Of a DNA stretch of 5,587 nucleotides, positions 1 through 5,365 are shown one piece after another. The translations under genes and the position numbers were made by a program. A model generated the notes under the pieces. The model worked only from the letters and a program-made list of their open reading frames with translations. It did no database searches and was not told where the DNA came from. Within the stretch, counting starts at the first letter, position 1; each line of letters opens with the position of its first letter. Origin of the DNA: a virus (taxonomy: Duplodnaviria > Heunggongvirae > Uroviricota > Caudoviricetes); the IMG/VR virus record IMGVR_UViG_2700989170_000003; one strand, written 5' to 3'.

Positions 1-203
1 CTTCTGATGCCATTCTATTTCAGGAAGGAGTGTCCGTTAAACTCAGGCTACCTCAGTCAGCGCTGGAACGACGAGAAGCCAGAAACCATTCAACCACAAT
101 CCAGACCATCATCCGCAATCACCGTATCGAAAACTGGCTATGTGTTTTTCGACAGGTGAACCATGAAATCAAAAATCAAATCGCTACTGGTCGCTGGTTA
201 TAA
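1..203 (+). CDS. Possible 3' end of an upstream gene running off the left edge; frame unresolved
   Basis: Two + frames are open from the window edge: frame 3 to a TAA at 201-203 and frame 1 to a TGA at 157-159. No motif or homolog recognised, so this is weak ORF-only evidence. Confidence 0.25.
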   Translation, partial: SDAILFQEGVSVKLRLPQSALERREARNHSTTIQTIIRNHRIENWLCVFRQVNHEIKNQIATGRWL

Positions 204-266
204 CCACGGCTGGTTAAGTATTTCGTTTGTCGATTTCTGGTTTAAAAATCTCAATCTGAGGGAATC

Positions 267-2147
267 ATGAGGCCAAGTGAACTTAGCGACCTGCTTTGGG
301 CGCAGGTTGACAGGGTGGCTCCGCACCTGTTGCCAAACGGCAAGATAGAGGGGCATGAGTGGGTTGCCGGTAACGTCAACGGTGACAAGGGAAACAGCCT
401 TAAGGTCAACCTTATCGGCAAGAAAAAATGGGCTGATTTCGCTGAGGGAGACGGCGGTGACATGCTTGATTTGTGGATGGCATGTCGTGGAATTAACCTG
501 CATCAGGCTATGCAGGAAGCGAAAGCATTTCTCGGTATCAAGGATGACGATCACCATTTCGATGCCAGACGTGAGAAGAAATTCTCCAGACCTGATCGTA
601 AGAAAATCGCCCGCTACGTTACCAGAACAGAATCCCATCTTGAGTACCTGCAATCGCGTGGCATATCGCCAGAAGTCGTAAAGCGCTACGAGGTTGTCAG
701 CGGCAAGGTGTGGAATGGAGAACGAGAACTGGATGCTCTGGTGCTTCCGTACAAACGCGATGGTGAGTTGTTGCAGGTCAAGCGAATCAGCACTGAGCGC
801 CCGGACGGGAAGAAAGTCATTATGGCAGAAGGTGATTGCGAACCTTGCCTGTTCGGATGGCAGGCTCTGGACGCTGGCGTGAGGGTGGTTGTGCTTTGCG
901 AAGGCGAAATTGATTGTATGAGCTATGCGCAATACGGCATCTCGGCGTTATCCGTGCCGTTTGGTGGCGGGAAAGGCGCTAAGCAACAGTGGATTGAGTT
1001 TGAGTATCACAACCTCGACAGGTTTGAGGAAATATTCATCTCGATGGACGTTGATGATGTTGGTCGTGAAGCCGCAAGGGAAATCGTAAGCCGACTCGGT
1101 GAACATCGTTGCCGTCTTGTTACTCTGCCGTACAAAGACATCAACGAATGCCTGATGAACGGTGTTACCGAGGATGAAATCTGGCAGTACATCGGCACGG
1201 CATCCTACTTCGATCCTGAAGAACTCTACAGCGCGCGAGAGTTTTACCAGGACACTATCAACGCTTTCTACGGCAAGCAGCAGTATCTGTTTAATCCACC
1301 GTGGGAATCTCTCGCAGATAAATTCCAGTTCCGTGAGGCCGAGTTGACGCTGGTCAATGGTGTGAACGGTCACGGAAAAACGGAGGTTGTCGGGCATATG
1401 GCACTTGAGGCAATGCGTCAGGGTGTGAAGACGTGCATCGCGTCACTTGAGCTGAAGCCAGGCATTCTCCTTAAGCGACTTACCCGTCAGGCAACGTGCT
1501 GCAAGATGCCGCCAGTGCTGGAAATTGACTCTGCATTTAAATTTTATGACGAAAGACTTTGGGTGTTTGGCCTGACCGGAACGGCGAAAGCCGACAGGCT
1601 GATCGAAATATTCGACTACGCTCGCCGCCGATACGGCATCCAGTTATTCATCATCGACAGCCTGATGAAATGTGGCATAGGCGACGATGACTATAACGGG
1701 CAGAAGGCGTTTGTTGACTCGATTTGCGACTTCAAAAACAAAACAAACTCCCACGTCATTCTCGTTACTCACTCGCGAAAAGGAGACAGCGAAGAAAAAC
1801 CAACCGGGAAAATGGACGTAAAAGGCTCTGGAGCGATAACAGACCTGACAGACAACCTTTTCATCATCTGGCGTAACAAGGCTCGCGAGAGAGCGTTACA
1901 GAGAGTTCAGAGTGGTGAAAAGATGTCAGAGAAGGACGAACAGCTACTGGCATCTCCGGCATCTGTTTTGATGCTTGAAAAACAACGTAACGGTGAAGGT
2001 TGGGAAGGTGGTGTCCCGTTGTTCCTTGACGAGCAATCGCACCAGTTCCTGCAACTTGAATCAGGATCGCCATATAGCTACATCGCCAATATGCCGAAAT
2101 CGGAATATGACGAGGCGTGGCGACAGGAAAACGTGACAGAGTATTAA
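267..2147 (+). CDS. Bifunctional DNA primase-helicase, T7 gp4-like (TOPRIM primase domain plus RecA-fold/DnaB-like helicase domain)
   Basis: 626-aa ORF; ATG at 267 is the first in-frame start after a stop at 243-245, with GAGGG 4 nt upstream. TOPRIM motifs VVLCEGEID (about nt 883-909) and SMDVDD (about 1039-1056); Walker A GVNGHGKT (1359-1382); Walker B-like LFIIDSL; KGSGAITDLTDN helicase motif. By-eye colinear with T7 gp4. Confidence 0.85.
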   Translation: MRPSELSDLLWAQVDRVAPHLLPNGKIEGHEWVAGNVNGDKGNSLKVNLIGKKKWADFAEGDGGDMLDLWMACRGINLHQAMQEAKAFLGIKDDDHHFDARREKKFSRPDRKKIARYVTRTESHLEYLQSRGISPEVVKRYEVVSGKVWNGERELDALVLPYKRDGELLQVKRISTERPDGKKVIMAEGDCEPCLFGWQALDAGVRVVVLCEGEIDCMSYAQYGISALSVPFGGGKGAKQQWIEFEYHNLDRFEEIFISMDVDDVGREAAREIVSRLGEHRCRLVTLPYKDINECLMNGVTEDEIWQYIGTASYFDPEELYSAREFYQDTINAFYGKQQYLFNPPWESLADKFQFREAELTLVNGVNGHGKTEVVGHMALEAMRQGVKTCIASLELKPGILLKRLTRQATCCKMPPVLEIDSAFKFYDERLWVFGLTGTAKADRLIEIFDYARRRYGIQLFIIDSLMKCGIGDDDYNGQKAFVDSICDFKNKTNSHVILVTHSRKGDSEEKPTGKMDVKGSGAITDLTDNLFIIWRNKARERALQRVQSGEKMSEKDEQLLASPASVLMLEKQRNGEGWEGGVPLFLDEQSHQFLQLESGSPYSYIANMPKSEYDEAWRQENVTEY

Positions 2148-2176
2148 ATGACCATCTACATCACTGAGCTAATAAC

Positions 2177-2209
2177 AGGCCTGCTGGTAATCGCAGGCCT
2201 TTTTATTTG
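2177..2209 (+). terminator. Intrinsic terminator, lambda tR2-like
   Basis: Perfect 8-bp stem AGGCCTGC (2177-2184) / GCAGGCCT (2193-2200), 8-nt loop, then TTTTTATTT. Lies between the replication gene and ninB, where lambda has tR2. Confidence 0.7.
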
Positions 2210-2224
2210 GGGGAGAGGGAAGTC

Positions 2225-2665
2225 ATGAAAAAACTAACCTTTGAAATTCGATCTCCGGCACATCAGCAAAACGCTATTCACGCAGTACAGCAAATCCTTC
2301 CAGACCCAACCAAACCAATCGTAGTAACCATTCAGGAACGCAACCGCAGCTTAGACCAGAATCGAAAGCTTTGGGCTTGCCTTGGTGACGTCTCTCGTCA
2401 GGTTGAATGGCATGGGCGCTGGCTGGATGCAGAAAGCTGGAAGTGTGTGTTTACAGCAGCATTAAAGCAGCAGGACGTTGTTCCTAACCTTGCCGGGAAT
2501 GGCTTTGTGGTAATAGGCCAGTCAACCAGCAGGATGCGTGTAAGCGAATTTGCGGAGCTATTAGAGCTTATACAGGCATTCGGTACAGAGCGTGGCGTTA
2601 AGTGGTCAGACGAAGCGCGACTGGCTCTCGAATGGAAAGCGCGATGGGGAGACAGGGCGGCATGA
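2225..2665 (+). CDS. ninB: NinB (Orf-family recombination protein)
   Basis: 146-aa product [23 protein letters not shown]... matches lambda NinB as I remember it. GGGAGAGGGAAG Shine-Dalgarno precedes ATG 2225; the ORF-track start at 2207 is an upstream in-frame extension. Confidence 0.93.
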
Positions 2666-2844
2666 GACGACAGCGACGAAGTTTCACCGACATCATCTGC
2701 GAAAACTGCAAATACCTTCCAACGAAGCGCTCCAGAAATAAACGCAAGCCAATCCCAAAAGAATCTGACGTAAAAACCTTCAATTACACGGCTCACCTGT
2801 GGGATATCCGGTGGCTTAGAGAACGTGCGAGGAAAACAAGGTGA
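2662..2844 (+). CDS. ninE: NinE
   Basis: 60-aa product [23 protein letters not shown]... matches lambda NinE from memory. ATG 2662 overlaps the ninB stop (ATGA). Confidence 0.88.
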
Positions 2845-3011
2845 TTGACCCAAATCGAAGTTACGAACAAGAAAGCGTCGAGCGGGCTTTAACGTGCGCT
2901 AACTGCGGTCAGAAACTGCATGTGCTGGAAGTTCACGTGTGCTCCGATTGCTGCGCAGAACTGATGAGCGATCCGAATAGCTCAATGTACGAGGAAGAAG
3001 ACGATGAATGA
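2841..3011 (+). CDS. ninF: NinF-like small Cys-rich protein
   Basis: GTG start at 2841 overlaps the ninE stop (GTGA), with GAGGA about 7 nt upstream. 56-aa product [42 protein letters not shown]... resembles lambda NinF. Absent from the ORF track because of the GTG start and short length. Confidence 0.78.
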
Positions 3012-3726
3012 GTTAATAAATGGCAATGCCATCAAAATGACAAGCATTGAAATCGCTGAGTTGGTGGGTAAGCGTCATGACAATGTGAAACGTACCATCG
3101 AAACGCTGGCTAAAAATGGTGTTATCCGGCTTCCTCAAATTGAGGTTTCCGAAAGAATCAATAACTTAGGGTTCAATGTTCAGTACGAGCATTACGTCTT
3201 CGAGGGCGAACAAGGTAAGCGAGACAGTATTGTCGTTGTTGCCCAGTTGTCGCCAGAGTTCACCGCTCGCCTTGTTGACCGCTGGCGAGAGCTTGAAGAA
3301 GCTGCGGTTAATATCCCCAAAACGCTACCGGAAGCGTTGCGCCTTGCTGCCGATCTTGCTGAGCAGAAAATGCAACTGGAAAACCAGCTCGCAATTGTCG
3401 CACCTAAAGTTGAGTTTGCCGATCGCGTTGGCGAGGCCAGCGGAATTTTGATTGGAAACTTTGCAAAGGTTGTTGGTATTGGTCAAAACAAACTGTTTGC
3501 GTGGATGCGTGATCACAAAATCCTTATTGCTTCAGGTTCCCGGCGCAATGTGCCAATGCAGGAATATATGGATCGCGGCTATTTCACAGTGAAAGAAACA
3601 GCGGTCAACACAAATCACGGAATACAGATATCGTTCACCACAAAAATCACCGGGCGCGGTCAACAGTGGCTGACCAGAAAGTTGCTCGATAACGGAATGC
3701 TGAAAGTAACAGGGGAGGCTGCTTAA
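3004..3726 (+). CDS. Antirepressor-like protein: N-terminal Rha-family regulatory domain plus C-terminal KilAC (Ant C-terminal) domain
   Basis: 240-aa ORF. N-terminus TSIEIAELVGKRHDNVKRTIETL is the characteristic Rha/Bro-N-like signature; the C-terminal half (ALRLAADLAEQKMQLENQLA...KLFAWMRDHKILI...) is KilAC-like. ATG 3004 lies inside the ninF 3' end, with GAGGA about 10 nt upstream. Confidence 0.82.
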   Translation: MNELINGNAIKMTSIEIAELVGKRHDNVKRTIETLAKNGVIRLPQIEVSERINNLGFNVQYEHYVFEGEQGKRDSIVVVAQLSPEFTARLVDRWRELEEAAVNIPKTLPEALRLAADLAEQKMQLENQLAIVAPKVEFADRVGEASGILIGNFAKVVGIGQNKLFAWMRDHKILIASGSRRNVPMQEYMDRGYFTVKETAVNTNHGIQISFTTKITGRGQQWLTRKLLDNGMLKVTGEAA

Positions 3727-4059
3727 TGGCTAACCTACGCAAAGAAGCACGCGGCAGAGAATGCCAGGTACGTATTTACGGCGTATGCAATGGCNNNNNN
3801 NNNNNNNNNNNNNNNNNNNNNNNNNNNNNNNNNNNNNNNNNNNNNNNNNNNNNNNNNNNNNNNNNNNNNNNNNNNNNNNNNNNNNNNNNNNNNNNNNNNN
3901 NNNNNNNNNNNNNNNNNTGCATGGGCTTGTAGTGCGTGTCACGATGAAATCGACCGACGCACCCATAATCTCGACAACAAAGACGCCAGACTTTACCACC
4001 TCGAAGGCGTGATCAGAACGCAGGCGATACTGCTGAGGGAGGGGAAGATTAAGTCATGA
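3726..4059 (+). CDS. ybcO: YbcO-like (DUF1364) putative metal-binding nuclease; CDS interrupted by an N-run
   Basis: N-terminal MANLRKEARGRECQVRIYGVCNG and C-terminal ACSACHDEIDRRTH...EGKIKS both resemble DLP12 YbcO. The two parts are in different frames across the 123-N gap. Start overlaps the upstream stop (TAATG); stop overlaps the rusA start. Confidence 0.72.
3795..3917. other. Run of 123 N (assembly gap or masked bases) inside the ybcO-like gene
   Basis: Direct observation: n at every position 3795-3917. Confidence 0.99.
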
Positions 4060-4418: not shown

Positions 4419-4603
4419 ACGCCACAATTCAAACGATACCAGAGCTTCTTATCCAGACACGAGGCAATCAGACCGAAGTGGCAAGGATGCTTTCCTGCGC
4501 AAGAGGAACAGTGCTCAAGTACAACCGAGACAGCAAAGGCGAGCGTCACGTAATAGTTAACGGCGTCCTGATGGTCAAACAGGGCAAGAGGGGAAGACGA
4601 TGA
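4415..4603 (+). CDS. ninH: NinH (small HTH protein)
   Basis: 62-aa product; ...GNQTEVARMLSCARGTVLKYNRD...VIVNGVLMV matches lambda NinH from memory. ATG 4415 overlaps the rusA stop (ATGA), with GGAGA 4 nt upstream. Confidence 0.85.
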   Translation: MNATIQTIPELLIQTRGNQTEVARMLSCARGTVLKYNRDSKGERHVIVNGVLMVKQGKRGRR

Positions 4604-5223
4604 GACTAGAAAGCGTAGCTAAATTTCATTCGCCAAAAAGCCCGATGATGAGCTACTCACCACGGGCTACGGCTTCTGACTCTCTTTCCGGTACTGATGT
4701 GATGGCTGCTATGGGGATGGCGCAATCACAAGCCGGATTCGGCATGGCTGCATTCTGTGGTAAGCACGAACTCAGCCAGAACGACAAACAAAAGGCTATC
4801 AACTATCTGATGCAATTTGCACACAAAGTATCGGGGAAATACCGTGGTGTGGCAAAGCTCGAAGGAAATACTAAGGCAAAGGTACTGCAAGTGCTCGCAA
4901 CATTCGCTTATGCGGATTATTGCCGTAGTGCCGCGACGCCGGGCGCAAGATGCAGAGATTGCCACGGTACAGGCCGTGCGGTTGATATAGCCAAAACAGA
5001 GCAGTGGGGGAGAGTTGTTGAGAAAGAGTGCGGAAGATGCAAAGGTGTCGGCTATTCAAGAATGCCAGCAAGCGCTGCATATCGCGCTGTAACGATGCTA
5101 ATCCCAAACCTTACCCAACCCACCTGGTCACGCACTGTTAAGCCGCTGTATGACGCTCTGGTGGTGCAATGCCACAAAGAAGAGTCAATCGCAGACAACA
5201 TTTTGAATGCGGTCACACGTTAG
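4600..5223 (+). CDS. Q: Late-gene antiterminator Q (lambda-type)
   Basis: 207-aa product MRLESVAKFHSPKSPMMS...CRDCHGTGRAVD...CGRCKGVGYSR is near-identical to lambda Q as I recall it, including the zinc-finger Cys motifs. ATG 4600 overlaps the ninH stop (ATGA). Confidence 0.95.
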   Translation: MRLESVAKFHSPKSPMMSYSPRATASDSLSGTDVMAAMGMAQSQAGFGMAAFCGKHELSQNDKQKAINYLMQFAHKVSGKYRGVAKLEGNTKAKVLQVLATFAYADYCRSAATPGARCRDCHGTGRAVDIAKTEQWGRVVEKECGRCKGVGYSRMPASAAYRAVTMLIPNLTQPTWSRTVKPLYDALVVQCHKEESIADNILNAVTR

Positions 5224-5265
5224 CAGCATGATTGCCACGGATGGCAACATATTAACGGCATGATA

Positions 5266-5306
5266 TTGACTTTTTGAATAAAGTTGGGTAAATTTGACTC
5301 AACGAT
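5266..5306 (+). promoter_or_regulatory. Late promoter pR' with qut (Q-utilisation) site
   Basis: -35 TTGACT (5266-5271), 17-bp spacer, -10 TAAATT (5289-5294), then the pause-inducing AACGAT element (5301-5306). This matches the lambda pR'/qut arrangement immediately downstream of Q. Confidence 0.78.
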
Positions 5307-5327
5307 GGATAAATGCACTCGTTAAAT

Positions 5328-5365
5328 AAAGCCCTGAGTTAATAGCTCGGGGCTTTTTGCGTTTT
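5328..5365 (+). terminator. Intrinsic terminator about 30-60 nt downstream of the pR' start (tR'-like)
   Basis: 8-bp stem GCCCTGAG (5331-5338) / CTCGGGGC (5346-5353) with one G-U pair, 7-nt loop, then TTTTTGCGTTTT; an AAA tract sits upstream. Confidence 0.55.

Follow-up and report, generated by a model that had tools for sequence, protein, structure and literature searches.

A predicted gp4-like primase-helicase next to a lambda-type tR2 in Shigella flexneri: probable remnant of an ES18/mEp043-type replication module truncated by IS600

The replication genes of phage lambda (O-P-ren) and of P22 (gene 18-gene 12) occupy the same slot between cII and ninA/tR2/ninB; in both phages the initiator has two domains, the iterons lie inside its gene and the module ends at the ATG of ninA. 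Lambda supplies P, a loader for the host helicase DnaB, and P22 a DnaB-type helicase that still uses the host primase DnaG. It is textbook lambdoid mosaicism that replication modules are swapped at gene boundaries, that initiators consist of two domains and that the ninA-tR2 linker is conserved. The lambda order is pR-cro-O-P-ren-tR2 (PMC3640518). The ES18-type module is described in the literature as an O-like protein plus a primase-helicase, and this arrangement has been published before (PMC10307801, PMC4159516, PMC8951638): the replication module of Sf101 is more than 90% identical to that of mEp043 (PMC4159516), and the Eru5 type combines an HTH_36 protein with a primase (PMC8951638). The module is already known from ES18, epsilon34, mEp043, Sf101, the Anderson typing phages and the Eru5-type Shiga toxin (Stx) phages. 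Here we analyze a stretch of 5,587 bp, the window, which is the complete small contig AZQA01000232.1 of a Shigella flexneri draft assembly (IMG/VR record IMGVR_UViG_2700989170_000003). A first-pass annotation of its sequence had pointed to a 626-aa primase-helicase joined directly to a lambda-type tR2 and nin region; it missed the IS600 end that truncates the preceding initiator gene, as well as the published precedents. We read the window as the right-hand part of an ES18/mEp043-type lambdoid replication module, truncated by IS600 in a decayed S. flexneri prophage, with a probability of roughly 0.85.

The window shares its genes and their order with the ES18 module (gp59 initiator, gp60, gp61 primase-helicase, gp63 NinA), and modules of the same type are found in mEp043, Sf101, epsilon34, g341c, SEN22 and the Anderson typing phages STMP5/17. 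DNA identity is 96-98% to ES18 (compared over window positions 56-300), mEp043 and Sf101, and about 90% to epsilon34; the closest phage is mEp043, with 97.6%. Wherever compared, the ES18 relatives have the same joint to ninA/tR2. In intact relatives, the early rightward operon runs from cII through the O-like initiator, a 35-codon open reading frame (ORF) and the 626-aa primase-helicase to ninA/tR2 and ninB. The window departs from the ES18 group in that IS600 has cut its initiator to 34 codons and the origin is missing, and in that its nin region is a mosaic of its own, with a Rha/KilAC antirepressor-like gene (3004-3726) and no dam methylase. At least 80% of window positions 1-2300 is carried by 286 of the 5,426 complete Escherichia coli genomes, about 38 phage records have a protein at 90% identity or more, and several GenBank records already name the gene 'DNA primase/helicase'.

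The 626-aa ORF has the extent and strand given by the first-pass annotation (Table 1), and its assignment as a gp4-like primase-helicase is confirmed by sequence comparison, the activities being predicted. The protein is identical in sequence to WP_032322952.1 (S. flexneri), which belongs to a 90%-identity cluster with 5,632 members. Pfam places Toprim_2 at aa 209-296 (E 6.5e-12) and AAA_25/DnaB_C at aa 355-594, while PHROG 239, 'DNA primase/helicase', covers aa 4-622 (E 1.6e-170). By sequence, T7 gp4 (E 6e-23) and Twinkle come out as the best relatives of solved structure; both align over the two domains. A profile of 21 homologues (68-98% identity) aligns aa 108-539 to T7 gp4 residues 62-507 (E 5e-26), and tblastn returns about 1,500 phage records, mainly T7-like, with about 25% identity over aa ~100-540. 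The AlphaFold model, with a mean predicted local distance difference test (pLDDT) score of 67 (80-92 in the primase domain and 35-80 in the helicase domain), retrieves T7 gp4 first in Foldseek (E 1e-20), then Twinkle, Aquifex DnaG and DnaB.

The domain plan begins with a DnaG-like N-domain without zinc ligands (aa ~1-95) and a TOPRIM RNA-polymerase domain (aa ~100-310), followed by a linker, an SF4 RecA-type helicase domain (aa ~350-595) and a conserved acidic/aromatic tail. The relationship of the N-terminal region to DnaG is visible only through NCBIfam (TIGR01391, E 1.4e-8, aa 39-143) and through the profile and fold comparisons, both of which find 2au3; in the AlphaFold model this domain consists of a beta-ribbon plus helices. 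Pfam searches with the N-terminal 200 aa or the C-terminal 88 aa alone gave nothing at E<=10, and phmmer found no match in the PDB for the N-terminal 200 aa. The tail (aa 596-626, SPYxYIANMPxSEYDEVWxxENVTEY) is reminiscent of the partner-binding tails of gp4 and single-stranded DNA-binding protein; no phage polymerase is encoded.

Like T7 gp4 and Twinkle, the window protein joins a TOPRIM primase, a linker and an SF4 RecA-type helicase in one polypeptide, at 21-26% identity over ~350-430 residues, and it shares with them the catalytic acids, Walker A/B, the motif 3 histidine and the KQRNG arginine. The EGEID, DxD and KDxN motifs of the TOPRIM domain line up with those of T7 gp4, and Walker A, Walker B and the motif 3 histidine lie in the SF4 domain downstream of the primase. 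Among the 21 homologues, the TOPRIM acidic residues E212 and E214 (CEGEIDC), D261, D263 and D291 are invariant, as are the helicase residues K371 (GVNGHGKT), E395, D464 (FIIDSL), H502 and R574 (EKQRNG). From the recognized DnaB/gp4 motif rather than a tool alignment, R574 would be the arginine finger. K519 was considered as a substituted T7 arginine finger and ruled out, since it aligns with T7 R487 of motif 4. Unlike T7 gp4, the protein has no Cys4 zinc finger, carries an insertion of ~26 residues before the arginine-finger strand and ends in a different tail. Also unlike T7, there is no cognate phage DNA polymerase, and by analogy the protein would be delivered to a defined origin by the O-like initiator instead of working within a replisome of T7 type.

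The first-pass annotation took this single protein to stand in place of O, P and ren, which does not hold. The sequence between the IS600 end and the 35-codon ORF is the 3' end of an initiator gene: 36/41 aa (88%) of its product agree with the C-terminal end of gp54 of mEp043, the Phage_rep_O initiator whose stop codon lies 107 bp 5' of the primase-helicase gene, and the matching C-domain is PHROG 33384. In the prophage of E. coli E2348/69, in FDAARGOS_943 and in Stx2a_F403, a 258-aa HTH_36 protein occupies the initiator position; the Stx2a_F403 protein is named 'replication protein O'. When the upstream ORF was extracted from every related locus collected among the matches listed from our scans, a full initiator was found directly upstream of the primase-helicase in 22/22 intact loci, a count of sequences, many of them near-identical prophages, and not of independent events.

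The 22 initiators have N-domains of three types (mEp043-type Phage_rep_O, HTH_36 and lambda-O type) and one common C-domain, 87.5-96% identical over the last ~127-144 aa, so that the primase-helicase strictly co-occurs with a single initiator C-domain. One initiator, from an IMG/VR contig (locus L135), is a natural chimera whose domains were exchanged at the O linker. Its residues 17-155 match lambda O 19-157 with 90% identity, and residues 156-282 share 96% identity with the C-domain of the HTH_36 initiators. Iteron-like triple repeats were present within the initiator gene, in the linker between the domains, in both relatives checked (L004:3617-3682 and L001:2618-2683), and the repeat sequence varies with the N-domain type: mEp043 has three copies of TGTCACC-N5-GGTGACA followed by A-rich repeats, and E2348/69 has three copies of GGGGTGGGGCAGGAGCTGCCC. 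The HTH_36 initiators are 243, 251, 258 or 259 aa long and differ in the repeat-encoded Gly/Ala-rich linker, which suggests a varying iteron copy number. An O-like initiator with internal iterons thus stands immediately upstream in the relatives, while the window retains 34 codons of it. The predicted layout is that of lambda O, with an origin-binding N-domain, an origin within the gene and a partner-specific C-domain. Since the initiators keep one C-domain under alternative N-domains, one of them of lambda-O type, the unit swapped relative to lambda is the O C-domain plus P plus ren, with its left edge inside the initiator gene and its right edge at 2147/2148.

The 35-codon ORF between initiator and primase-helicase is open in the same frame and at the same length in 22/23 related copies, one of them a diverged variant with 24/35 identical aa (hand count). 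Because it is kept open in this way, one copy being clearly diverged, the replication module may include it as a third member. Its TGA overlaps the ATG of the primase-helicase gene (ATGA), to which it would be translationally coupled. It is called as a gene in the source assemblies and is unannotated in the RefSeq records of mEp043 and of the E. coli prophages examined; the ES18 record has three genes (gp59, gp60 and gp61) annotated under this stretch. A scan for sigma-70-like promoters gave 5 sites against 4.9 in shuffled sequence, and we make no promoter claim for the gap 160-266.

The left end of the window falls within a terminal inverted repeat of an IS600 copy (complete-genome counterpart L192, ~6526-7789). 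The reverse complement of positions 1..55 begins TGAGGTAGCCTGAGTTTAACGG, with the TGAGG... start expected for an IS3-family end. Positions 1-62 have 6,252 matches, spread over 3,169 of the 5,426 E. coli genomes with a maximum of 43 in one genome, and in the two records examined the match lies ~10 bp outside the annotated IS600 transposase gene. In the complete S. flexneri genome CP034931.1, the stretch that corresponds to this part of the window has the identical sequence, and a 376-aa transposase of IS3 (IS600) type is encoded immediately to its left. We assigned the 55 bp in the window to IS600 from this position next to a transposase and from the many copies per genome. Megablast alignments with relatives all begin at window base 56, and the contig ends where it does because of the IS600 copy. 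Further left in CP034931.1 are late-gene fragments (holin, DUF1133, Rz1, terminase) and additional insertion sequence copies, and neither the rest of the initiator nor an immunity region was found in the 8 kb inspected. Because the DNA left of IS600 consists of late-gene remnants, the truncation is a rearrangement or deletion and not a simple insertion. The primase-helicase ORF is intact but stranded, with initiator and origin missing at the locus, which makes this copy a module remnant; it would presumably be unable to drive origin-specific replication of this prophage.

The right edge of the module is sharp. In a three-way alignment with mEp043, the window is unrelated to lambda through the TAA at 2145-2147 and essentially identical to it from 2148, so that the last base of the stop codon directly abuts the ATG of ninA. 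By blastn, window 2148-2665 corresponds to lambda 40567-41084 at 96.3% identity, spanning ninA, tR2 and ninB, and HK97, HK140, HK542 and others likewise start matching at 2147 or 2148. Window 1-2147 has no blastn match to lambda 37800-45000, and neither its DNA nor the proteins encoded there resemble lambda O, P or ren. The sharp mosaic junction proposed by the first-pass annotation is therefore borne out, as is the return of lambda homology within a few tens of bases of the stop codon; the breakpoint lies at 2147/2148 and is sharper than its estimate of 2150-2170. The lambda alignment that it had suggested as a check finds homology at 2150-2225, and the protein has not turned out to be a non-replicative ATPase, the other outcome named there as speaking against the proposal. 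The lambda, tR2 and ninB matches are not due to chance.

The tR2 hairpin (2177-2200) has the form AGGCCTGC-N8-GCAGGCCT, an 8-bp G+C-rich stem with an 8-nt loop, followed by TTTTTATTT up to 2209. It was picked up by the terminator scan and is kept in the RNA fold centroid (minimum free energy -17.5 kcal/mol). The region 2177-2209 is base-for-base identical to the lambda site between ren and ninB, which we take to be tR2 from the lambda gene order (PMC3640518), the lambda record used not annotating it. This element is a predicted terminator of lambda tR2 type, and the module in the window, like those of lambda and P22, ends at ninA/tR2/ninB.

The 26-codon ORF that encloses tR2 was at one point a candidate for a new gene, which an exact-sequence look-up ruled out: the peptide is already deposited as 'NinA protein' (UniRef K7PHM1_9CAUD). 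ES18 gp63 and Sf101 NinA are one-residue variants of it, and the product matches PHROG 5907 (E 1.6e-19). The peptide is hydrophobic, and the ninA TGA overlaps the ninB ATG. ninA is among the listed nin genes of lambda and P22 (PMC8022706).

What stands upstream of the ninA-tR2 cassette was surveyed in IMG/VR, with at least 120 contigs recovered by each of two probes, the hairpin and the ninB start. Lambda-type ren was found at 55 loci, two types of DnaB-like helicase at 33 loci each, the primase-helicase of the window at 26, a second ren-like gene at 4, and two types of small unknown genes at 5 and 3 loci, respectively. These seven sequence classes, representing six distinct gene types including the primase-helicase, all end at the ninA ATG, with joints of the form ATGA, TGATG or TAAATG; the primase-helicase class has three stop-codon variants. 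One more upstream type (5 loci) joins at the hairpin itself. To the right of the cassette, ~75 bp long, at least seven different continuations were seen. The 2147/2148 junction is thus old and widespread, one of the usual joints between genes in lambdoid mosaics, placed at a conserved linker.

Codons 1-23 of ninA were compared among 50 distinct copies, which gave 13 synonymous and 11 non-synonymous distinct variants where 27% synonymous would be expected (binomial P 0.005, counting variants among related sequences rather than independent events, in a region partly constrained by the hairpin). Third codon positions hold 14 of the 24 variants, and the other two frames have no synonymous excess. 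This hints that ninA is translated. A more far-reaching proposal holds that the ribosome translating ninA modulates the tR2 hairpin, giving translation-coupled read-through into nin and Q, and that the ~75-bp cassette is a universal recombination linker for swaps of replication modules. We consider it improbable. N is required to pass the nin terminators, which speaks against a strong effect of ninA translation on tR2.

Table 1. Features of the left part of the window (positions in the 5,587-bp contig)
Feature	Position	Strand	Remark
IS600 end (terminal 55 bp)	1..55	-	left contig end; cuts initiator gene
O-like initiator, 3' end (last 34 codons + stop)	56..159	+	
35-codon ORF MKSKIKSLLVAGYNHGWLSISFVDFWFKNLNLRES	163..270	+	between initiator and primase-helicase
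Primase-helicase, 626 aa (predicted)	267..2147	+	
Mosaic junction	2147..2148	.	alignment with lambda and mEp043; blastn segments
ninA, 26 codons, encloses tR2	2148..2228	+	
Lambda-type tR2 intrinsic terminator (predicted)	2177..2209	+	
ninB (Orf recombination mediator), first large nin-region gene	2225..2665	+	Pfam NinB, E 1.1e-54

To the right of ninB follow, in order, ninE, ninF, a Rha/KilAC antirepressor-like gene, a YbcO-family gene, rusA, ninH and Q, and 3' of Q a PR'/qut/terminator region. Further blocks match lambda at 2669-3006 (ninE, ninF) and at 4590-5323 (Q, PR'; lambda 43875-44609, 96.6%). Lambda ninC, ninD, ninG and ninI are absent from the window, which makes the nin region a mosaic unlike that of lambda. 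The gene between ninF and the YbcO gene encodes 240 aa with Rha and KilAC domains (Roi/antirepressor-like). The next one, of the YbcO/DUF1364 family (3726-4059), is broken by 123 N at 3795-3917, an assembly gap of the deposited contig whose length breaks the reading frame; in the complete genome the gene is intact and encodes 96 aa. The late-operon control region (4590-5356) comprises Q, a PR'-like promoter (TTGACT-17-TAAATT, 5266-5294) and a strong terminator-like hairpin at 5328-5356. An Rfam scan of the whole window gave no family at gathering score.

A scheme for how the intact module might work can be built by analogy with lambda O-P-DnaB, P22 gp18-gp12 and T7 gp4, from which all biochemical steps are inferred. 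The N-domain of the initiator is expected to bind the iterons inside its own gene; the initiator would assemble there and open the neighboring A/T-rich DNA. Its C-domain, which differs from those of lambda and P22 in keeping with a module where helicase and primase are predicted to reside in one protein, would then recruit the phage hexameric SF4 helicase in place of the P-DnaB complex. The helicase would unwind in the 5'->3' direction while the fused TOPRIM domain makes RNA primers, which the host DNA polymerase III would extend, since no phage polymerase is encoded. It is plausible under this model, and by the same analogy, that DnaB, DnaC and DnaG are dispensable, in line with the reduced dependence on DnaB and DnaG suggested by the first-pass annotation. 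On the evolutionary side, the conserved ninA-tR2 cassette, common to phages with varied replication genes, would give homology for recombination, and only in-frame gene-boundary joints would survive. In the S. flexneri prophage, a rearrangement associated with IS600 has taken away the origin, the immunity region and everything of the initiator except its last 34 codons.

A rival reading concerns primer synthesis. T7 gp4 and DnaG recognize the template by means of four zinc ligands, which are missing here. In an hhalign profile alignment of low probability, consistent with the motif pattern, DnaG C40/H43/C61/C64 fall opposite G35/N38/D57/E60, and the first 190 residues contain no Cys that is conserved among the 21 homologues. 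A form of T7 gp4 without its zinc-binding domain is not known to make template-directed primers. The window protein might then be a helicase only, like metazoan Twinkle, with an inactive or structural primase half and with primers coming from host DnaG as for P22 gp12, which works with DnaG according to the passage of PMC8022706 that cites Wickner 1984. We regard this as unlikely. The invariant TOPRIM metal-binding acids, and an N-terminal half as well conserved as the helicase half, argue for a selected catalytic function, and the invariance of D57 and E60 suggests that the domain retains a defined role. Priming by zinc-independent template recognition in this gp4-like family, which would make lambdoid replication independent of DnaB, DnaC and DnaG, is a further possibility of low probability, more modest than the coupling of ninA translation to tR2. 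A reading further removed treats the gene as an early-operon moron whose Toprim-plus-ATPase product serves in defense or exclusion and not in replication. Toprim and P-loop ATPase domains do occur together in defense, for instance in the OLD and Gabija families, PADLOC reports a weak match at domain level to the DnaG-like domain of a DRT model (E 8e-9), and the exclusion-related ren occupies a nearby position in lambda. We rejected it as very improbable. No PADLOC family covers the whole protein, and the order of primase then SF4 helicase, together with the full-length similarity, is that of gp4 and Twinkle and the reverse of OLD and Gabija (ABC-type ATPase then Toprim nuclease). The gene moreover always follows an initiator gene, at loci without another helicase or helicase loader, in the slot that P or P22 gene 12-type helicases take in other lambdoid phages.

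The junction itself could also be read as a recent and unique recombination in this prophage, of evolutionary interest in its own right, and the single-base precision of a breakpoint at a stop/start boundary would suit such an event. Its distribution refutes this, and we give the idea next to no credence: the identical joint is found in mEp043, Sf101, phiKp_30, epsilon34, g341c and APC_JM3.2, in the 26 recovered IMG/VR loci and in the 286 complete E. coli genomes, and six further classes of upstream sequence, representing five distinct gene types, run up to the same ATG. Several points weigh against our reading of the window as a truncated replication module of the ES18/mEp043 type. With the zinc ligands missing, priming could be changed or lost, confidence in the AlphaFold model is no more than moderate, and the relatedness of many of the 22 intact loci lessens the weight of their agreement. 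What is missing of the initiator gene could be present at another place in the S. flexneri chromosome, beyond the 8 kb inspected to the left. Finally, the literature searched holds no biochemical study of this primase-helicase subfamily, and with no experiment found on any family member, helicase and primase activity, contact with the initiator and independence from DnaB, DnaC and DnaG are what we infer.

Among Stx phages, the Eru1-3 types (PMC8044961) were considered as a match and ruled out on their different gene sets, whereas Eru5 matches. In Stx2a_F403 (AP012529.1), the type phage of Eru5, an HTH_36 initiator precedes a protein that shares 96-97% identity with that of the window, and the next gene downstream is a different one, not ninA/tR2. 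The Stx2a_F403 protein is 968 aa long, with a 342-aa intein (Hint plus LAGLIDADG homing endonuclease) inserted in Walker A. The intein sits between K371 and T372, starts with Ala and ends with His-Asn, and was seen in some of the orthologues (L003:4335-7241, L195:6577-9483 and L088); Eru5-type Stx2a phages carry it.

For annotators, the practical meaning is that a 'toprim domain-containing protein' in this position is a predicted phage replicative primase-helicase, that the 'HTH' or 'replication protein' upstream of it is its likely origin-binding partner, and that this Shigella copy is a dead remnant. Beyond correct annotation the window itself matters little, its general points being those of lambdoid mosaicism. 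The biochemistry of this very common family of gp4-like proteins without a zinc finger, in turn, bears on how Eru5-type Shiga toxin phages replicate after induction.

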